Below, one piece after another: positions 10,310 through 64,000 of a stretch of DNA of 64,000 nt (position 1 is the first letter of the stretch; every line of letters begins with the position of its first letter). The position numbers and the translations under genes are program-made. Below the pieces are notes generated by a model that ran no database searches, was not told the origin of the DNA, and saw only the letters and a program-made list of their open reading frames with translations. This stretch comes from Cyanophora paradoxa CCMP329 (taxonomy: Eukaryota > Plantae > Glaucophyta), in the NCBI GenBank assembly GCA_004431415.1, contig QPMI01000640.1:128816-192815 (forward strand), read 5' to 3'.

Positions 10310-13300
10310 CTACAGATCTAAAGCCGCGAGGGCCTGCCGCAGGGTCCCCACGATCTCTGCCGTCGAGGGCCGCCCGGAGGGCTCCTCGGCCCAGCAGCGC
10401 GCGAGGAGCCCCGCGAGGGCGGCCGGCAGGTCGGGGGGGATGGGCGGCCGCTCGCCCCCCTCCAGCACCCGCGCCGTGATCTGCCGTCCCCGCGCCCAGT
10501 ATTAGTTATATATATATCTTTAATTCGCTCGGCGCCGGCCTAGCACTAATTCGAGTCCGGAAGCTGAAGGATAGGCCTAGGGTGGCGGAGGCGTATACGT
10601 AGATCGATATCCAGCTACAAAAAAAGCAAGATTGTAGAGAAGAGCGGGGTGCATATGGGCAGGGCAGCGGGGGCGTACGTGCTCGGGGCGGAGCCAGGCC
10701 TCGACGGGGCGGCGGGCGAGGAGCTCCCAGAGGACGACCCCGAGGCCGTACACGTCGCTCCGCTCGTCGTACCCCCGCATCCGCTCCACCTCCGGCGCCC
10801 GGTACTGCCCCCCCGGCCCCCGCGACGGTGAGCCGGCACTCCATCGCAGACCTAGATCCAGACGAAATTGAAAAAAGTCAAACAAAAGCGGCGCACGTGG
10901 CGGTCGCCGACGGGGTTCCTCGGATGGCGCCCGCTCCGCTCCCTCCGGTGGGAGGCGCTGAAGTCTGAACGAAAGGGAACCCCATGCAAAATTAAAGGAA
11001 ATTCAATCGAGACGGATTTCAGAAGCTCAAACCACCAATCTTGACATTTAAGAGGTCGTCCTGCTCTCCATCGCGCAATTCAGCTTAGTCCATTAGACAA
11101 ACTTCGGATTTATGCATCACAAATTTCATCCGACGTACCACAAAGATATTCTCAGACTGCGAATTCGCGCGGAGGGACATAAAGCTTAAGATCCGTCCTC
11201 TTGATGCTGGGCCCGGGATACGTATACGCATACGAATTCGCACCTTGAAGTCTTTGTGTATCACAGGTGGCTGTCTGCTTTGCAGATAGTGCAGGCCTGC
11301 TCACGCAAAGAAATAAAAACATATTTGCATACATATAACACGCGTAGTACGAGCTATACATATTTGCACCAAATAAAAACTTCATCAAGGCTTGCAAAAC
11401 AATTGCACCTTCGGCGATCTGAAGGGCCATAAGCATAATCTGTTTTTGATCCAGCTCGCCAATCAATGAGCTGTTCTGCATCGTTAACATCACATATCAA
11501 TATTGTTCATGACAGGCACAAATTCGAATGGAACGGAGGTGCACATGTAGTTCACGCGCGTGCTCACCCGTATGATTTGCTTCAAGTTCCCTCGCCCCAT
11601 ATACTCCATGACTGCATCGATATCGCGCACCGCAATTCATTGAGTCAGTCTTCTGCGCACTCTGCTACGAGCGGGCAGATGTGGGGCCCTTCGGGTTCAC
11701 CGAGAATGGGGCTGGGGGGTCTCAACGAAGCCCCGACGAGAGCGACGACCCGCGGAGACTGCAGGGACCTGCAGCAAATATTTCAGTACTATTCATTGAA
11801 TCTCAAAATATGAATTGAAGCTTTTAGAGACATATATGTGTATGTTCAATTGCTCATGAATATATGGTGCGTGCACACGTACACGTACCAGTGGATATCC
11901 GCTTCGCTTCGCAATCTACGTTTCTCTGCGTCTACGTACTCGTCGACGCGGGTCACCCTCTTGACCGCAACGACCTTCCCTGATCATGAGAATTGCACGC
12001 ACAGAGTCGATTTGTGATCGACGAAGAAAACCCAAAGGCAGATATCGATTGCGCCAATTTTGCAAGGCGGACCGTTGTAAATTCCCCGAAAAATCTCGAC
12101 TCGTGTGTCCAAATCTGCATACCCGCCGGAGTTTGGCACGATGCGCTCACCTAGAGCCAGCTGTGACCTCGAGTCAGGATGCAGCCAGGACACCCGGGAC
12201 AGAGTTTCGGATAAATACGTATATATACGCGGAGCACATGGGAGCGAGTGTACCTTGCGGGCATCAATATTCCACGGTAGTTCAGTTTCGAACTCGCCCC
12301 ACTCAAGATGAACGCCGAAATTTGTATGGCCGGCGTCATCACCAAATTTCCAGTCATCCCTCGAGCACGTTTCCAGAAGACTCATTTTCTGTACACACGA
12401 ATTAAAATGATGCGTGCGATATTAATTCGTTCGTTCTTTAATTTCGCGGCATTGAAGCGAATTCGAAGCGAACACGTGCGCGGACCGTTGGCAGGGCGAT
12501 CCCCGTGGCTCGCACCTCGCGCACTTTCTCTGCCTCTCGAGATAAAACCTGCGCTTCTCGAGATCAAGCTCGCGAACACTCGATCGCAGATTCGATTTCA
12601 GTACGCACGAGCATCGAGCTGTACGCCGTGCGAATGCGTTCAAACTCTGGATCGTTTGTAGACCTTGAATCCAAATTCGAAAGATCTGATCATCAATTTT
12701 ATGTGCATATGCATGTCACAGAACATGAGGTAGCCTGAACCTATATAATTAGCTATAGGACGCCGGTAAGGAGAGATCTGGATTTCGAAGTATACTGGTG
12801 AAGCCAGCTATTTTAAATTGAAGTGCGCCCGAATATTTTGCTGCGATATTACTCATGATCAGCGCGAACGGGGGCGCCGCACCTTGTCCGAGGCAGGTCA
12901 ATGCGTCAGCGAAAGCCGCCCTGGCCTCGCAGAGCAGCAGGGGAAGCACGGCGGCCTTCTGCCTCGACCACGCGCATGCGAACGATCGGGTCAGTCGACG
13001 TCGGCATCATCTCGAGCTGCCAAGCGAGGAACGGGGCATGGAAAATGCGTCTCGCAGTCGCCGAGCTGGCTCGCCTGGCGGACGATGAGCTCCCAGTCGG
13101 AGGAGCTCTCGTCGGGGCCCGCGGAGAGCGCCGCCCCCTCCTCCAGCGCCCCGCCCCCGTCCGCGCGCCTGCCCCCGCCCCGCCCCCGCGTGCCTGAGCC
13201 GCTGACTCCGTCTCCAGAAGCAAACGCACGAGAGGACAACTCGCAGGGCCTCTTCGATTCAAGGAGCCAGCCTCAGCGCGTCCGCACGCGTCGAGCCACG

Positions 13301-52459: not shown

Positions 52460-52594
52460 TTGCCCAATTAAAAACGGAGTGCGGGGGATGCAGACCCCCC
52501 GTGCCCTGTCCTGTCTTGGGCGACAGCGACTCTTCCATGTTCCTGTCGTGGGCGCTATACTAATGGCGCTTACGGTGACTTATTGGGGACAGTT
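52460..52594 (+). ncRNA. Box H/ACA snoRNA, copy A1
   Basis: Hairpin GCCCAA..TTGGGC with internal pocket, hinge ACAGCGA (atypical H box), second hairpin, then ACA-GTT end. Confidence 0.75.
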
Positions 52595-52631
52595 CCCGCT
52601 GTTCTTCCACTATCTCTCTTTTCCCGTCTCC

Positions 52632-52782: not shown

Positions 52783-52814
52783 TCCACCCATTCTCTAGAA
52801 GCCCCTCTTTCGTT

Positions 52815-52948
52815 TGCCCAATTAAAAACGGAGTGCGGGGGATGCAGACCCCCCGCGCCCTGTCCTGTCTTGGGCGACAGCGACTCCTCCATGTTCCTGT
52901 CGTGGGCGCTATACTAATGGCGCTTACGGTGACTTATTGGGGACAGTT
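52815..52948 (+). ncRNA. Box H/ACA snoRNA, copy A2
   Basis: Near-identical duplicate of 52460-52594. The two T>C differences convert G-U pairs to G-C. Confidence 0.75.
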
Positions 52949-53335
52949 CCTCGCACTCGCCCCCGGGCCCCCCGATAGAGAGTCCTTTCACGACCCGGGC
53001 CCTGCGCTACGAAGGAAGCCCTCCAACCCCACTCGTGCTTGCCCATGCGGCTCCCAGCGAGTTTTCACGTGCACGTATACGTAGGCGTGTCGTTTCGAAT
53101 TCACAAAGCTTAAGATAACCCGGATTCTCGGGCGTGAGATTCAGCTGCAGGCCTAGGGCCGGGCGAAAAAAATTGAAGACTAGTACTAGTATTGGCGGTG
53201 GCAATGCATGTCTTAAATTCATTAAGCTTGCAGACGTCCATATTTGTCTAGCCTAGATCCGTATATAAAATCTGCGGGGCCACAGTACGGCCCATCCCGT
53301 ACCGCATTCAATCTAGTCAGTCTCCGGGTACCAGT

Positions 53336-54652: not shown

Positions 54653-55289
54653 CTCTCCAAACTTCAATCCACACCTACGTGCCCCACGCGCAGGCGAGGT
54701 CGAGCAGGCGAGGTCGTGTGCCTGTGCGCTCCGCTATCTGCCTGTGCGCTCCGCTTCGCGTGAACTTGCAATCAATATTGGTAACTGGGGTGTCTTGCTG
54801 GCCCAGCTGCAGTACTAGTGGCGCGCGGCTATAGCTAGCGCGCGCTCTGAAGGGAATTCAAATTCAGGCACCCCCCTTCCCCCCCACCCCCGGCCCCACT
54901 CGAGGAACGGGCAACCATGCATGCAATGGCCACGAGCCAGCTGCAGCTGGAGCTATAGCTAGCGCTCAGCGGCTTGCGCGGCTCATGCACCGGATGCTCG
55001 ATGATGCATCGGCTTCTTCTGATCATATATAATCATGAGCCGCTGAGCGGAATCGATGTCGCGTGTCGGACGTCGATTATATATAGGTGGGCCTTTGTGA
55101 AGCGTTGAGCTCTCGAGCTTGCCCCTTCGCTGTCAATGCATTGTTAACCCTCGGAGGTTGCATGAGTCACGCGTCGCGGAGGTTTGGGTGTTATATTGCG
55201 ATCAGGTACACGCTGCACTAACAGGGGGGCTAGCACTAACCGACGCGGGGAGTAACAGCCGGTGTACCCCTCGGGGGGCCTCCCGGCCT

Positions 55290-56796
55290 CTAACGATGCT
55301 CAGGCTCTAACTGAATGCTGTACCCCCCGCTGTTACTGCCCGAACCTTCCGAACTTGCGTAATTCGGCCTCGCCCTGTACCCAGTGGCTGGTGTCGTCCA
55401 TCCATTCGCGTACCTCCCTCTGACGCTTGAGTGACTCACGCTGCTCGGGGGTAGGGGAGGGGGGCCTTCGAGGCGGGGTGGGGAAGGGGGTACGGTGGCA
55501 AAATTCAGCCACTCGGGGGGTATGCCGAATTCGCCGTGAACGATCCTCTGCGGTGTGAAATACCGGTCGCTGCTCACGGCCAAGTGGAAGAACGCGCTCC
55601 TGAGCCCGGAGAGGAAGCGTGGTTGCATGAATGGCTGCTGGAGGGACTCGTCGCGCCAGGGGGCTACGAAATCAATGATACGCTGCTGTACCTGCGCGGG
55701 CAGGGCAAGGATCTGGCTCTTGCGGTTCGCAAAGGCCGTCCACAGCGCTTGCAGGTCGGCCCAATCGCCGTTCAGATCCCTGCGTTCGCGCCTCAGGTAC
55801 GATCTCGGGTTCTCTGTCATACCCATCAAGCCCGCGGCCCTGATCATCTCCCTGTCCGGGAGCTCTCGCTCGTCGTGGAATTCGTCTCTAATCCAGCGCA
55901 CAAGGTAGAGCACGCGCTCCATGAAGTTCTCCGCCGGCGAGCCGCCCCTGAGGACGTGCGCCTCCCCTCCAGCACTGCGTTCGCATCCTCCAAGTCCACG
56001 TTCCGCTGTCGAATCTCCCCGTCCAGGTCGCCGTTGTTGTACAGCACGTCGGACTCGCGTGTTCGCGCCATGCTCGCGGCTCGGTGAGAATTTATACCTG
56101 TACCCCTACTCGCGGTCGGGGTACCTGTCGCCGGGCATCAGCCTCGCGCGCTTCCGCATCTCCGCCTCCCGGGTAGCCAGTTCTTCGGGTCGTTGCTCCA
56201 CTCCTCCCATTCGCGTATGTCCCGTCTGACGTCACGCGGGGCGGGGCGTTTATCGGTGGGGCGGGCGGGGCTGGCAGGGCCTGGCGCGGGGGTTGAGGCC
56301 CCTGTTCCACGAGTACTCGGGTACTCTTCCCATCCCAGGGGTACCAGATTCATCGGAATTGGCTCAACTTCGAATTGGGGCTTTTTGACGTGATAATCAT
56401 AGTTTGTGACATACGCCGTCACAGCCGAGCGCAAGCGCGAGAGTCGCGCAAATTTACGTCGTCCATTGCGAGTCCCTTGCCTTCGCGTACCACTCGAGGA
56501 TTTGCATGCGAATGTGGTCCGGGAGGGTCGAGAGTATGCTGAGCTTGGAGCCCAGGGCGAACCAGATGCGCTTGAACTCGTCGATAATCCTGCCCTCGTC
56601 GTGGCTCCGAACGTAAAGGGCCCCGCCAGAGTTGTAATGCGTGTCTAGCCACCCTGCCGGGCCAGCTCTAGCACCGGCCAGGGTTGGCGCTGTCGATTCG
56701 GTCGCGAGGCCTGCTCTACCACCAGCGTCTAAGGTCCTTGACCTGATCTATGAACTGTGCGATCACGTCCCTGGGCGCTTCCTCTGCATCCGACAT
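55290..56796 (-). pseudogene. Unknown intronless protein with two copies of a helical domain and Pro-rich linkers; several frameshifts
   Basis: ATG at 56796. Fragments EFKRIWFALGSKLSILSTLPDHIRMQILEWYAKARD..LSRLRSA and DLQALWTAFANRKSQILALPAQVQQRIIDFVAPWRD..LSGLRSA align with each other. Confidence 0.55.
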
Positions 56797-56846
56797 TTGC
56801 AATTGCACACATCAAGAAATTCTAAACGCTACTGCGAGGCTACGCT

Positions 56847-57501
56847 ATGCATACCGATACAAATTGCGAGACTTTGCAACAGGGGAGCGCAGCGTGGCAC
56901 GCGGCGCGCCGTGAAAAACTAACTGCATCTAATTTTGCGGCTGCGTGCGGCATAAACCCCTGGAAATCCAGGCCCGCCTGTGGCGGAGCTAAGCGGGATA
57001 GCGGAGGAAAACAACTTTGACAACCCTGCCCTAACCTATGGGCATGACTATGAGCCCCTCGCGGTCTCTCTCTACAAAACGTCGAACAACAACGTGGACG
57101 TGCAACATACTGGATTGCACGAACATAAGGAACTGCCCTTCCTGGCGGGCAGCCCGGACGGGCTGATTGGAAGCGATCGTATACTTGAAATAAAATGCCC
57201 CTACAAACAAGAACTCTACGAAAAGGTCCCAACTTATTACATGCCCCAGCTCCAGGGCCTGCTGGACATAACGGGCCGCGACTGGGCCGAACTTTTCTGT
57301 TTCACGCCTCTGCGCGTGCAAACGTGGTACGTCAGACGGGACGAGAGGTACATCAAGCTCATGAGGAAGTGCTTACATCTATTTTGGATGCACGTCAAGG
57401 AGGGCACGCCGCCCGAGCCCTACAGCGATCGAATGAAGTCAGAGAACCTCAGCGAGGAGCAGGCGGCGCTGCGCGAGTTTAAGTCGTACGCCCTCCTCTA
57501 G
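56847..57501 (+). CDS. YqaJ/lambda-exonuclease-like viral recombinase nuclease (one frameshift near 56975)
   Basis: QGSAAWHAARREKLTASNF, GHDYEP, FLAGSPDGL, ILEIKCP, YYMPQLQG: PD-(D/E)xK motifs intact. Confidence 0.92.
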
Positions 57502-57839
57502 TGTCCCGACCCTCTCAGATATTAATTTAAAGATCTGGGAGGGTCGGGACACGTCTCTTGGTCAGACTACTTATGTACGCCCTCCTCTAGTGTCTCGACC
57601 CTCTCAGATATTAATTTAAAGATCTGGGAGGGTCGGGACACGTCTCTTGGTCAGACTACTTATGTACGCCCTCCTCTAGTGTCTCGACCCTCTCAGATAT
57701 TAATTTAAAGATCTGGGAGGGTCGGGACACGTCTCTTGGTCAGACTACTTATGTACGCCCTCCCTCCTCTAGTGTCCGGACCTTTCCAATAATCTATAAA
57801 GAAAGTAGGGAGGGTCCGGACACGTCTCTTGGTCGGACT
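57486..57839. repeat. Four tandem 89-bp units, each carrying a ~52-bp palindrome with AT-rich centre
   Basis: Units start at 57486, 57575, 57664 and 57753 (fourth diverged). Arms GTGTCCCGACCCTCTCAGAT / ATCTGGGAGGGTCGGGACAC flank ATTAATTTAAAG. Confidence 0.95.
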
Positions 57840-58115
57840 CACCGTAGCTTGGTGTAGCTCAGGCCCAGGCGGGGAAGGCGAGTCTGCAATGAATCAGACC
57901 CCACAGGATTTGGTTGAGCTGCTCTTTGCAGGGGGCAGGAAGGCGGCCGCAGAGGGCTAGGGAGACTAGATCTAATTAGTAATCCCACACCGCGCATGTG
58001 CAAGCGACAGAGAACGAAGTGAGTAAATGCAGATCGATGATACGGCAATCATGAGTTGTTCAGAAAAGGTCGGGACACATAGAGAGTGCATGCCCTCACT
58101 CTCGTCCGCCCTCGC

Positions 58116-58168
58116 AATGTCCCGACCCTCCAGATCTTTAAATTAATATCTCAAAAGGTCGAGACATT
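58116..58168 (-). repeat. Inverted-orientation copy of the palindrome
   Basis: Reverse complement of 58118-58166 matches 61461-61510 with one substitution and one indel. Confidence 0.92.
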
Positions 58169-58212
58169 CATTGATCATATGCATGACGTCACTTGAATTC
58201 GCACGTTCGTAT

Positions 58213-61200
58213 TTACACACTGGCACGCGCATCCCGTTCGCGAAGTCCACACTGTGACATCCGACAATCACACGCGCCTGTGAATGAGAGCATAGCAGTC
58301 GGAGAAAACGTTGTAAACCTCTGGAAGCTTGGCGCCATGCCTGCCCTTGCCTGCTTAGCCTGGCGCTCTACTGCGTCGTCGAGCATGTCTTCCTCCCACG
58401 TGATGTAGCGTCGCTTTCGGCTGCCCATTTGCCCTCCGTCCGCGTCGGAGAAAGCGCGTCTCACTCCGAGGTACTTCTCCAGCAGGTACTTGATGACTTG
58501 CCAAGACTGCTGCGAGAGCCGCTTCTTCTCACCGTCCGCTGCATCGAAGCGGGGCGCGCGCTCGTCCAGACTCTGCAGAGCCGCGTACGCCTCCCGACCC
58601 TCCGGCGACGCCAGGGCCGCGTAGGCTTCGTCCGACCACAGAGCACGCCCCGCGAGCTTTCCATACCCCCGCCAGCCGAAGAGTTTCTTGAACAGCGCGA
58701 CGACCTTCGATACCTTGAGGCGCTCAGCAGTAGGCACGATCTCGGCAACGTCCGCGCCATGCTTCAGCACCAGCGTGACCACGGCAGTGAGCGGGATGGA
58801 GTAGAACGAATCCCACATCCAGGCGACGTCTCCTTCGGTCAGCTCGCTCGGATCCTTGGCCAGGAACGCGGCGATCGACGTGCGAGCAAGCGAAGCAACC
58901 TTCTCGATGTCCAGCTTAGCGAGAGACTCGCGGGACTGCCTCCAGGCCAGCACCGTGCTCCACAGATCGACGGGCTCCAGCGCGCCCGCCTCCAGCACGC
59001 TCCTGATCTCGCGCAGCCGCTGCTCCTTCTCCTGCTTCGGTCCGCTCGGGTTTTGATCCTCCGTGACTTGCACGTTCATCAGCGCGCAGGTCGACATCAG
59101 CCGCAGGCGCGCTGCCACTGCGAGGCGCCGAGTGGGCATGCCGGCGCGGCGGCTCCCGCGGTGGCTAGCCTTCAGGTCCAGGTAGCGCTGCATGTCGTCC
59201 GAGCTCTCGTCGTCGTCGCTCTCACGCCAGTGCGCAGCCGCCGCGCCGACCGCAACCGAGGGCGTCCGGTTCTTGCGCACGGCGACGAGCAGGTGCTCTC
59301 CGTCGGGCGTGCTGCGTTTGCGCAGCCTTCTGACTCGAAACAGCAGCTGCACGATGTCGTCCGCCTCCAGCTGCGCGGGCTCTGCCTGGAACACGCCGTA
59401 GACCTTGTCAAAGTGCGCGTCCGAAAAGTCCACGCCTGCCCCGAGCGCGGAAGTTGCGATGAGCACGTCGCAGGCCTTGTACGCGCCCTCCTCAGACACA
59501 TCGATCGACACGATGCGCACTGGGCCCTCGTTCGTGAAGCGCACGCTCTTCTCCTTGGCCTGCCCAACGATGAGCCCGATCGTGAACGGTGCGCCGCTGC
59601 CGTCCTCGGGCCCTGCCTCGAGCTGAGTCACGTACTGAGCGCCGCCCAGGCTGAGCTGCTCCAGCGCCTGCTTCGCAATCTTCTCCTGCAGCTCGATCGC
59701 CTTGGCCGGCGTCTCCGCGATGATCATGGCCGCGAGCGCCCAGGTCGGCACTGCACCATGATGTCCGCCTCGACGTGCGCCGGGCTGTCTGACACGCGCA
59801 TCTTCCAGTCGCAGGTGCGATGCGAGTTGTACAGGAGCCCCAGGCGCGCCCCGACCTCCTGCGCCGACTCTGCCAGGTACGCGAGATCGACCGACCGAAC
59901 GAAGCCGTCCATCGCCACGATGCGCGATGCCTTCATCACGCCGCGCCATAGGCCCACGCAGCGCGCGTTTCGAGGCACTGACCGCATACCTAGGTGCAGG
60001 CCGGTGGGCTCGAGGTGCCGCTCGAGGTGAGGTGCTTCGTGAGGGAGGAGAGCTCGTCCAGCACGACCAGTAGCGGCGCCGTCGACCAGCCCTCCCAGTC
60101 CTCGAGCACCTTGTGCAGCGAGTCCCATGTGATGACGACGCACCTGCACTCCTCATGGCGGAAGCCCCACTTGCCATGCGATCCCTTTGAGCTCTCCGGT
60201 GCTTCTTGATGTCCATGTAAAGCACGGCGTCCTTTGACAACTCCGCAGCATCAATGCGACGCTTGAGGTCGCGGGAGAAGCCCGCGGCAAGTCACGAGGA
60301 TCACTCGCCAGCCGCCTGCGAGGGCCGGGTCCAGGTACGCATCGATCAGCGCCTGCGTCTTCCCCGTGTTGAGTCCCGAGCAGATGACGTCGACCTGCGG
60401 CTGAGCGGATCTCGGGTTCTGCTCCAGCGCCCCGAATGCGGAGGTAAGGATCTTGCACGAGAGGTGGCGTTCATCCACTGCATTGACGCAAGCCTCCAGG
60501 CCGTCGACTCGAGCGCGATCAGGAGGGAGGGAGGGCAATGTCGAAGGCGACAGGCTGCGAGGGATCGGTCACATAGCGGGTCTGTGCCACGCTGCCCGAC
60601 TCCCTCCGGTCCCCTCCCCCTCGAGCTCGACTTCAATACCGTGCGCCTGGATGGAGATTCGAGCCGCCGGCGCCCCGGCTGACTCCCGCCCAGGACGAGG
60701 GTGATGGACCCGTCGGGCTCGACTCCAAGGTGCTGAACGCGGCGGGCGTCGTGCAGGCCAAGGTCGCGCGCAGCTCTGCCCCCGCCTTCCAGATCTCGTC
60801 CCTCACCGCCTTGTTTTGCGCAGGCGGTCCAGGAGCCGCTCCAAGGCCGCAGGCTTGGGCTCGAATCCAGGAGAGCGCCCGGCTCCGGGATGGGCTTAGC
60901 GCGGGGCGCCGAGCTTCTGGATGGAGTGGGGAGGAGCTCCGCTCGCGGCCCGGGCGCCGGCCCCCGCAGAACGTAGCCCCCGTGCCATCCACACCGAGCT
61001 CCAGGCCGCTCGAGCTCCCAAAGAACCATGCCATGAGATCGCAAGCCTCCGGGCTCTGTAGGACGTAGGCAGCCTTGAATCCATTATCCAAGGGGCGAGA
61101 GAAAGTGAAGCCTCCGAACTTGGTTGCAAAGGCGCAGGCTGCCGCGGTGCTCGTCTCATCCTCGCACCCGAGAAGTGGCTGGGGTGATGCAGGGCGGTGG

Positions 61201-61370
61201 AAGACGCAGAAAGCCGTCCCCAGGGTCGGGCTGCAGGCCTTCTGGACTTCGACGAGAGGAATCGAACGAAAAAGCTGCACTCCTGCTCGCTCAGATCTAT
61301 CTGCTGTACCCCGGCCCGGGCATACGGGCCAGGAAGGCGTCGACGTCGAGAGACACGCGTCCGTTGCCAT
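58213..61370 (-). pseudogene. UL9-like (origin-binding protein) superfamily-2 helicase, multiple frameshifts; start uncertain
   Basis: Across frames: ICSGLNTGKT (Walker A), VILVTCR, LYMD, VVITWDSLHKV, LVVLDELSSL (Walker B), IVAMDG, LIATSALGAGVDFSDAHFD, QLLFRVR, and a basic C-terminal segment. Confidence 0.8.
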
Positions 61371-61460
61371 GGTCGTCTCTCTATAGCTAGGCTTGGAAAA
61401 TTCTAGATCTACTAGGCTAGTCAACGTCTGTTGGCTAGCTATAGTCGACGTCTGGACTGC

Positions 61461-61595
61461 TGTCTCGACCTTCTGAGATATTAATTTAAAGATCTGGGAG
61501 GGTCGGGACAGGCTCTGGTCCGTCTGGATCCGGACTGCTCAGCGGCTGTCTCGACCTTCTGAGATATTAATTTAAAGATCTGGGAGGGTCGGACA
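61461..61595. repeat. Two further palindrome copies (period 86 bp)
   Basis: tgtctcgaccttctgagatattaatttaaagatctgggagggtcg(g)gaca at 61461-61510 and 61547-61595. Confidence 0.93.
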
Positions 61596-62789
61596 GGCTT
61601 TGGTCCGACCTTAAGCGCTCAACTAGACCCGGTTGACACCGTCTTGATCTCTCCTTCTTGGCGCAGCGGACGATGTGACGCGCAGACCGTCGGCCCGGCG
61701 GACGGGGAGGCGCGCGCGTAGAACTTCGAAGCGCTAGCCCCTTGCTTGACGAAGCTTAGAAAGTTTTGAGCGCACGCGAATGCGACACGTGTAGAGAGAA
61801 GGCAGAGCGCGCCGGAGCTAGCTTGCGCGGCCGAGCGCTCGACCGCCTTTGCTCCTAAGCTCAGAAAGTTTTGGGCTCACGCGGTTGCTCCACGTGTTTC
61901 GACTCAAAACACAGTACCCCAACCCGAAAAAAGCGCCCGGGCAGCGCATCTCGCAGCGCCCGGGCCCAGCGCTCCTTGCAGCACTTGCCAGAGGCACTAG
62001 CTTGCATTCCGCTCAGCCCGGAGAGCCGCCGCCTCGCTCCTTTCGATTCGGAGGTGCGCCTCACTTCGCAACCTCTTTCTCCGCACCACGGCTAGCTCCG
62101 GACCTCAGATTTTGGGCGCTGGAAAGCTCCTCGACGCCGCACTCACGCCGCCACGCGCAGGGTCGCTCGCGCCGGCCGCGACCTTCGAAAGCTCGATGGC
62201 GCCCGAGCCGGAGCACTCCGCCGCATCCCGCAGGTGCAGCTCGCTCTCTTGCCGCTCTATCCTTGCATTAGCACTAGAACATGCCCCGCAACCTCGCGCT
62301 CGATTCGCCGCGTCCGCTGACATTTGGTCTCTGAGCAGGTGCCGAGATTGGCCGCCGCGCCTTCCGCAACTCGAGCCGACGTTCGCGGCGACTTGCGCAC
62401 GCTTCTAGATCTCGTTCTCAAGCCCGCGCATCGATTCGGCGGCTCCGGCTCGCCTCCCCGCGCCTCCAGCCCCGCGCCCCACACCCGTTCTTGTCCTAGC
62501 TAAGCCCTCCCTTGTCGCGGCCAGTCGCGGGCTACGCGCATCGCGGATAGCATCAGTGGAGCTACGTTTCAGCGCTGGACGCAGGCCCGCCCGCCCAATC
62601 CCTCCCACCTCCCGCTCGCAGCACGCTCACTGGCCGCAGGCAGCTTCGCGGGGAGCGCTGGATTCGAAGCCGCGCACTTCCCGCCCGTCCCGACGTCGTA
62701 CGCGCTAACGTCGCCCGCGCCGCAGTGGCCGCCAGGCCTCCTGCATCCAGCCTTCGAGCCGGTGTGGCTGCGGGAGAAGCGCCTCGCCT

Positions 62790-64000
62790 TCTGGCAGGAG
62801 ACGGCCTCCTGCCCCTCACCCGTTCATCATCACCCACTGCGTCGTCGACCCACCACCTTCCTCGTCGGCTCGGAGACGGAGGGTGGATGACGAGCGTCGC
62901 GGGCATCGTCGAGTACATCGCGCGCACGGAGGGCCGGACACCTCCGCCGCCGTCGGCGCTGACATCGAGAACGGCCGGCTGGACGAGACCCTCGCCGGCT
63001 TCGGCTCCTCTGCCGCCTCTACTCCTACAAGCTCGGCGGCGTCTGCAGACCTACATCCGCGGCATCGTCCCAAGGCCCCTCTCCTCGGCGAGAGCCAGCC
63101 GGCGCTGGAGGCGATCGCGATCCCCGTCGCCCAGTTCAAAGACCCGGCGCCCGACGTCGGCCCTTCCTCGTCAAGCCCCACACCAAGGGCAAGGGCAAGC
63201 GCACCCGCAACTCGGCGCCGGCCTTCCTCCCGCCCCAGCCCCGCCACGGCCCCCAGCAGCGCCCCGGCCAGCAGCGCATCGACGAGATGCTGCCGCGCCA
63301 GGTCCGGCCCCGCGTACCCCCGCCTTCCCTCCCGTACCCCCCTCCCCCCGCCCCCCTCCTGATCAAGGGCAGGGTACCCCGACGAACGGCGCGGCGGGCC
63401 GAGCGGCTACGGGAGCTCGGCCTCCTCCGAGCGCCGACGGCCCCAGCCCCCTCCCCGGCCCCGCGCCGTCCTCAACCGCGATCCAGGGCTTCGGGGCCAG
63501 CAGGAGGCCGAGCGGCGGGCGCTGGCGGCGCGCAGGCGCGCGAGGCGGAGGAGCGGCGCCAGGCCCTCTGGGCCCAGCGCCTTGCAGGAGGCCACCGCCT
63601 TCCGCGCCGAGCTGGAGGCGGGCTTCCGCGCGGAGCGGATGAGCGCGGCGGAGGCCGTGGAGGCTGGCGGGCGTTCGAGGACGGGACCGTGGAGCTGGCG
63701 AAGGCCTCGGCTACAGCTACCGGCGGGCGCCGGTGCCACTCGTACGCAAGGCGGGCGGCGCGAAGGCCATCGCGGGCAAAGATCGACGCGGCGGAGGAGC
63801 AGGCGGCGCGCGAGGAGGCCGAGGACAACGCGCGCTTTCCGGCACCTGCACCACTGAGGCCCGAGGCGGTATTTTTTCTCAACCCTCCCTCAATTCGGTT
63901 CCGCGATGGCCTTCGAAGCTTATCCTGCCCACTACTCGCTAGGAGCCTCGCCGCGACACCTCACCTGGCTCCTCGGCGGCACCCCCACGGCCTCGGCGGT
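62790..64000 (+). CDS. Partial intron-containing hypothetical gene (low complexity/coiled coil), frameshifted, runs off window
   Basis: Host-style introns at about 63302-63372 and 63869-63942; helical fragments such as ALQEATAFRAELEAGFRAER. Confidence 0.35.

Follow-up and report, generated by a model that had tools for sequence, protein, structure and literature searches.

What kind of mobile DNA brings together a herpesvirus-type initiator helicase, a lambda-type exonuclease and a set of iterated palindromes in the genome of a glaucophyte alga? The question arises from a stretch of 64,000 nucleotides in the assembly of Cyanophora paradoxa CCMP329 (GCA_004431415.1, contig QPMI01000640.1, positions 128,816 to 192,815 of the forward strand), which we call the window and whose own coordinates we use throughout. 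The right-hand end of the window holds an element with genes for a UL9-like helicase and a YqaJ exonuclease, interspersed with copies of one palindrome. Our analysis indicates that this is likely the left arm of a mobile DNA family of about 50 copies in C. paradoxa.

Extent, copy number and integrity of the element

Read depth over the element is 29-82 times that of the single-copy flank in three of three DNA runs (a ratio that does not translate into copy number), and in all three the elevated depth extends from about 55,080 through the end of the window at 64000. Because depth is still high at that point, 8.9 kb is a minimum length for the element, whose right end lies beyond the window. We reconstructed the wider family from gene models in EukProt and one read mapping to the window, with linkage judged by gene numbers rather than DNA, and its member lists are the matches returned by searches rather than a census. 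On this basis at least 46 contigs bear some part of the family, in a genome in which unknown repeats make up 11.5% (PMC6704402). These data revise a sequence-only reading of the same DNA, which had described a compact 6.3-kb unit and a minimal replicon of initiator, origin and nuclease: those 6.3 kb form the left portion of a longer element, which also encodes a piece of a second helicase. The single-copy case that this reading had named as fatal to it does not apply, as these genes are found together again on many other contigs.

Contigs assembled from the single-copy flank stop at 55107 (runs X1 and X4) and 55109 (X9), so that, if these contigs were built from 31-mers, the shared sequence would start at 55078-55080. 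The (TA)4 at this candidate left end is one of four (TA)>=4 runs within the 64 kb. To its left lie ordinary spliced host genes, which we take from their sequence to be RPL36 and a phosphatase-like gene. An imperfect inverted repeat occupies 54964-55049, just outside the candidate end, where binned depth is above the one-end expectation, and TGA[CG]TCA occurs near the left end at 55163 and 55432.

Although the genes of the element are broken in the window, the breaks are likely assembly errors, since differences between reads and window coincide with frame changes. Six listed indels (55944, 56970, 56981, 58322, 62749 and 62933; 88 further indel rows lie outside this list) are present in most of the read depth, each at a frame change, and together they affect ORF3 (ORF, open reading frame), the YqaJ gene, the UL9-like helicase gene and the SF3-like (superfamily 3) helicase gene at the right. 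A contig built from reads across 60037-61488 is likewise 17 letters longer than the window. We considered the frameshifts as a sign of decay and rejected this because the listed indels at frame changes match most of the read depth. The element is real and multi-copy, and it is likely intact. In the DNA runs, deletion variants at 55793-56030, 56349-56469 and 62815-62887 account for a minority to half of the depth.

Helicase, candidate origin and exonuclease

The helicase keeps superfamily 2 (SF2) motifs I, Ia, II, III, V and VI, which align with those of environmental UL9-like proteins. Three relatives pass the 20-bit gathering cut-off of PF02399 (P0087, of the 99% subfamily, at 29.7 bits, P0012 at 22.5 and P0010 at 21.7), which bears out the UL9-type identity given in the sequence-only reading; P0011 and P0029 fall just under this cut-off, and the window's own helicase pieces have no Pfam match. 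The CyRepA1 profile NF042913 finds P0010 at E 6e-15, scoring 55 bits against a cut-off of 200, with no match to DUF3854. A PF02399-bearing cluster ranks first in the Atlas (27% of its members, with recognition below threshold). The top structural match is UL9 of herpes simplex virus 1 (HSV-1), at Z 6.3, a root-mean-square deviation of 11 and about 11% identity, values that come from a low-confidence model and are of a size that can arise by chance; both structure predictions are poor (mean predicted local distance difference test score, pLDDT, of 35). A viral fold search returned nothing at E<=0.001, and a sequence search of the PDB returned UL9 at E 0.2 only and no match for P0064, a long model of the SF3-like protein. 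No AEP/PriCT domain was matched on P0011, P0012, P0029 or the window's N-terminal piece; P0092 and P0094 do match.

In EukProt the helicase piece retrieves 12 clusters at 45-99% identity, and all that were checked are labelled C. paradoxa; 30 helicase models on 27 contigs form four subfamilies at about 99, 72, 68 and 45% identity. Run against 1.84 billion representatives, HMMER returned 11 matches, comprising five family members, one repetitive false match (P0089) and five outside proteins at E>=1e-4. The closest helicases from outside are AEP/PriCT-UL9 fusions like those of giant viruses. Among the viral contigs, prokaryote genomes and phages searched, we found no relative of the palindrome or of the SF3-like protein, and none of the helicase apart from one weak CyRepA1 plasmid match; Rfam gave no match. 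Judged by these searches, the element appears to have no close relatives outside C. paradoxa, the YqaJ of P0032 being the closest.

All seven palindromes counted in the sequence-only reading were located, at 57502, 57591, 57680, 57773 (64% identical), 58118 (reverse), 61461 and 61547. A 21-nt core is exact in six of them, against 0 expected from 100 shuffles, and five isolated copies fold into hairpins with z-scores of -5.5 to -10.1. The copy at 58118 is oriented against the two at 61461 and 61547, which places the helicase gene between inverted 50-mers of 96% identity. The palindromes are laid out like an origin of replication, and we regard them as a putative origin on the strength of this layout.

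The exonuclease was also correctly named at first sight: PF09588 recognizes the window's own gene and TIGR03033 scores above its cut-off on the relative P0030, both placing it in the YqaJ family. YqaJ alleles about 97% alike adjoin helicases only 68% alike, suggesting exchange of modules. The window's YqaJ (56983-57498) shares 91% identity with the common allele, and the positions at which the two differ cluster in mid-gene. Of all the genes in the element, YqaJ alone has a close relative outside: the YqaJ of P0032, on a 1.9-kb contig in ENA, is 59-64% identical and may belong to a related family from a different host. The other YqaJ relatives found lie on viral and metagenome contigs and match at 25-41%. 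At 113 loci retrieved through YqaJ we found no match to the helicase, the SF3 region, ORF3 or ORF4. The latter two are likely paralogues, as suggested by 26% identity over 117 aa (E 6e-4). The 6.3 kb first described contains four ORFs rather than three, and two more lie to its right.

Probable replicase exchange and antisense RNA

The gene to the right of the helicase matches 32 models, ten of them long (1,018-1,519 aa) and carrying a Walker A and further motifs at SF3-like spacing. In P0064 such motifs stand at residues 1005, 1049, 1096 and 1112, among which we take Walker A, Walker B and motif C to be represented. Going by gene numbers, 15 of 22 contigs have a UL9-like model at most six genes away from a short SF3-like gene, and 0 of 10 have one as near to a full gene (Fisher P=0.00035). 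The order YqaJ, UL9-like, short SF3-like is found on four of the four contigs that name all three. The presence of UL9-like genes beside the short but never the full form points to a replicase swap. C-terminal alleles are common to the long and short forms, with crossovers at differing places, which points to recombination between them. We propose that a UL9-like cassette bounded by inverted palindromes likely replaced most of the SF3-like gene. Internal tandem duplications with differing junctions, which could be assembly artefacts, are suggested by gene models from contigs 140, 194, 983 and 21332. Within the SF3-like tail, QQRIDEML (63272-63295) presumably resembles a PCNA-binding motif, a putative assignment. 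Residues 1-108 of P0004 (contig 983, not in the window) come from an exon whose product begins with an amphipathic helix and which is joined to a helicase model; this exon may be a further, virion-type gene of the element.

The helicase gene is also covered by a spliced transcript of the opposite strand. This transcript is seen in one run, X15, whose contigs cannot fix its starts, ends or levels and whose RNA nature is a guess made by software; three RPL36 introns are spliced in it. Eight of the nine joints listed over the helicase are GT..AG on the plus strand, the ninth is likewise after a shift of one base, and a tenth is tabulated separately. Depth at these joints is 0 in the three DNA runs, and in X15 most of them carry nearly all local depth. 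The helicase lies on the minus strand, and the complement of its motif V falls within one of the introns, so that the RNA is antisense. The absence of introns noted in the sequence-only reading thus holds for the helicase coding strand and fails for the opposite strand, which is spliced in this RNA-like run. The acceptor at 60694 is also where an exon starts in gene models P0057 and P0079. The motif TGACGTCA, which we take to be CRE/bZIP-like, occurs only twice in the 64 kb (56227 and 58184), both times within the element, and the copy at 58184 stands just before the first base of the RNA. The antisense strand holds 7 donor/acceptor pairs, compared with 2.6 in synonymous shuffles (P=0.004), a partly circular comparison as the motif was taken from the same introns. 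A protein-coding role for this RNA was rejected as unsupported: its long plus-strand frame is without homology evidence, and no homology search was made of it. We consider it likely that the antisense RNA keeps this copy's helicase gene quiet.

Features of the element in the window, with the evidence for each
Coordinates	Strand	Feature	Evidence
55078..55087	.	candidate left end, (TA)4 then GG	single-copy contig stops and 31-mer offset
55333..56071	-	ORF3, with frame breaks; another frame ends at 55290	ORF list; read indel 55944; no Pfam, PHROG or Atlas match
56106..56796	-	ORF4, likely ORF3 paralogue	matches P0022 N-terminus at 92-100%
56847..57501	+	YqaJ/lambda-type exonuclease, frame break near 56975	PF09588 E 2e-16; PHROG 434; read indels 56970, 56981
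57486..57839	+	tandem array, 3.9 x 89 bp, with four 50-bp palindromes (~20-bp arms, AT-rich core), behind YqaJ	repeat search, folding
58118..58167	-	fifth palindrome, reverse; left bound of helicase module	96% to 61461-61510, inverted
58204..61505	+	spliced antisense transcript over helicase gene	run X15 joints
58268..61370	-	UL9/CyRepA1-like SF2 helicase, ~1,030 codons, several frame breaks	motifs; PF02399 and CyRepA1 on relatives; structure match
61461..61596	+	palindromes six and seven, at an 86-bp interval; right bound of helicase module	repeat search, folding
61600..62735	.	multi-copy spacer with 41-bp direct repeat (61752 and 61857)	repeat search and depth
62736..63857	+	residues ~1163-1519 (last quarter) of a 1,500-aa protein with SF3-like motifs in the missing part	matches to long models
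63906..64000	+	small, moderately hydrophobic ORF off window edge (~62 aa in other copies)	ORF and relatives

Nature of the family

The explanation we favour, to which we give about an even chance of being right, is that the element belongs to an endogenous family of mid-sized DNA viruses, Polinton-like or similar, that has acquired a UL9-plus-palindrome origin module. We favour it because the host group carries 156 elements of the Polinton-like virus (PLV) type (PMC12220804 Table S6), because PLVs often switch replication modules (10.64898/2026.06.19.733378; PMC11161782), and because a small hydrophobic ORF lies at the right. The element resembles PLVs in being inserted many times in a single protist genome, in having a helicase (SF3 in PLVs, SF3-like here) joined to an N-terminal part that is not recognised, in module switching and in the PF02399 or YqaJ genes that PLVs occasionally carry (PMC12220804; 10.64898/2026.06.19.733378; PMC10120064); PF02399 is found in a few PLVs of other hosts (PMC12220804), and YqaJ is named in a figure legend on haptophyte PLVs (10.1101/2022.07.28.501842). 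In such a virus, the UL9-like protein would bind the palindrome arms, melt the AT-rich core and start replication with host polymerases, YqaJ would resect ends and promote exchange between copies, the antisense RNA would damp the initiator helicase, and the integrase and capsid genes would sit to the right of the window. The model for this module is HSV-1 oriS, in which two UL9 boxes flank an AT-rich spacer; the element shares with HSV-1 the SF2 motif set, PF02399 and inverted arms around an AT-rich core (PMC13261067), but differs in its arm sequence, in about 300 extra N-terminal residues, in the low identity of the structural alignment given above and in showing no ICP8, polymerase or primase.

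Several observations weigh against this explanation. None of the 156 glaucophyte elements in Table S6 of PMC12220804 has PF02399, and genes for a capsid, a packaging ATPase or an integrase were found neither in the 8.9 kb within the window nor in the gene models scanned. A long terminal repeat of several hundred bp is not evident, in that depth does not double over 55138-56071 (467-bp bins) and one unbranched X15 contig spans 55109-56088, a weak indication. The element does not contain the HSV UL9 box GTTCGCAC. Profile support for the SF3-like protein is weak (AAA_22 at E 0.001, PF00910 at E 0.25), its SF3 score of 6.5 bits exceeds 200 of 200 shuffles while leaving the label weak, and D5_N and TIGR01613 do not match it. 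YqaJ adjoins a full SF3-like gene on only one of ten contigs, and linkage between genes of the family is judged by gene numbers, not DNA. PLVs are 14-40 kb long, the element 8.9 kb or more. Compared with PLVs, the element lacks an evident long terminal inverted repeat (TIR), and its visible part shows neither structural module nor integrase, nor protein-primed PolB and rve integrase; the switch here retains the C-terminal quarter of the old gene, with both forms coexisting and recombining, and palindrome arrays are not mentioned in the accessible portion of PMC12220804.

The lack of an evident long TIR and the absence of PF02399 from the glaucophyte entries of Table S6 are why we keep open, as possible though rather doubtful, a nuclear replicon lacking capsid and integrase, whose own origins fire in place or as circles and whose re-entry into the genome takes place through homologous recombination assisted by YqaJ or at runs of TA. 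Its visible genes are for replication and recombination only, the tails are mosaic, the gene models hint at internal tandem duplications, the helicase resembles the plasmid initiator CyRepA1 (PMC9978351), and the catalogued glaucophyte PLVs, as far as the table goes, are without PF02399. On the other hand, the right part of the element lies beyond the window, the tandem duplications may be artefacts, no circle-marking joint is among those listed, a list that leaves out 47 rows, and a common left end fits an enzyme-cut terminus. The finding of no capsid or transposase gene in the sequence-only reading holds for the visible 8.9 kb only. The hydrophobic ORF and the P0004 exon also look like virion genes. 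In its fullest form, a eukaryotic replicon family without capsid or integrase that combines herpes-like palindromic origins, an interchangeable SF3-like or UL9-like initiator, YqaJ-driven re-integration and a self-limiting, host-spliced antisense RNA, this proposal is one we put forward only tentatively. The cyanobacterial CyRepA1 plasmids (PMC9978351, PMC10079941) share with the element a similar helicase core and abundant antisense RNA at the replication locus; in the plasmids, however, that RNA covers the upstream ssr7036 rather than the rep gene, and the profile score and missing DUF3854 set the element's helicase apart.

An unlikely reading, compatible with the others, makes the cassette at 58118-61510 a parasite of the larger family, its helicase and origin moving or inverting through the palindromes. 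The cassette is bounded by the inverted 50-mers, its four subfamilies reach down to 45% identity and three have members beside short SF3-like genes, and recombination between palindromes of the same orientation would release a circle of 3.8-4.0 kb; yet cassette depth is not above that of its neighbours, and no inversion joint is among those listed. Quite improbable, in our judgement, is a large cut-and-paste transposon, ISL2EU/PHIS-like or with another DDE transposase beyond the window, carrying a viral helicase as cargo. Elements of the ISL2EU type carry a YqaJ gene, insert at AT and usually have GG at the start of their TIRs (PMC4482050), and the left end here reads (TA)4-GG. The element is nonetheless larger and carries helicases, no DDE gene is seen in its visible part, its YqaJ relatives are the viral and metagenome matches described above, and intact interchangeable helicases with origin-like arrays are not described for ISL2EU/PHIS in the accessible portion of PMC4482050. 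We hold a decayed fragment of a giant-virus insertion, passively amplified by segmental duplication, to be very improbable: such insertions are reported in C. paradoxa (PMC12344493) and the nearest outside helicases are of giant-virus type, but the family has about 50 near-identical copies, it meets single-copy host DNA at a sharp boundary, and its frame breaks correspond to indels in the reads, all of which speaks against this.

UL9-like helicases as one among several alternative replicases of a virus group have parallels in mriyavirus SF2_hel, mimivirus R8 and ASFV (African swine fever virus) F1055L (10.1101/2024.02.29.582850); those proteins have an intact AEP domain, whereas none is detected in the element, in which no HUH gene is seen either (no scanned ORF matches the HUH Rep domain of Helitrons and Replitrons). 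Two unrelated initiator helicases apparently fill one slot of one family in one genome, with recombinants, so that replicase swapping, hitherto inferred between viruses, becomes directly mappable, and the locus offers a candidate UL9-plus-origin pair beyond herpesviruses and plasmids in a culturable alga. An analogy, and no more, can be drawn with the homologous regions of baculoviruses, in which imperfect palindromes are likewise arrayed at several places of one element that also has an alkaline-exonuclease-type nuclease and an SF3 helicase; the element described here yielded no baculovirus gene. Should the right arm prove to have capsid and integrase, the family would be an unusual Polinton-like virus family, and should it have neither, a kind of mobile DNA that we did not find described. 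The top listings of literature searches, which did not extend to subscription papers, Repbase or bioRxiv supplements, showed no description of the element family.

Elsewhere in the window, a 2.4-kb GC-poor stretch (47-51%) at 10500-12900 starts near a (TA)5 run and contains no convincing ORF, and a 137-bp direct repeat, 99% identical, occupies 52460-52596 and 52814-52950 in single-copy host DNA.

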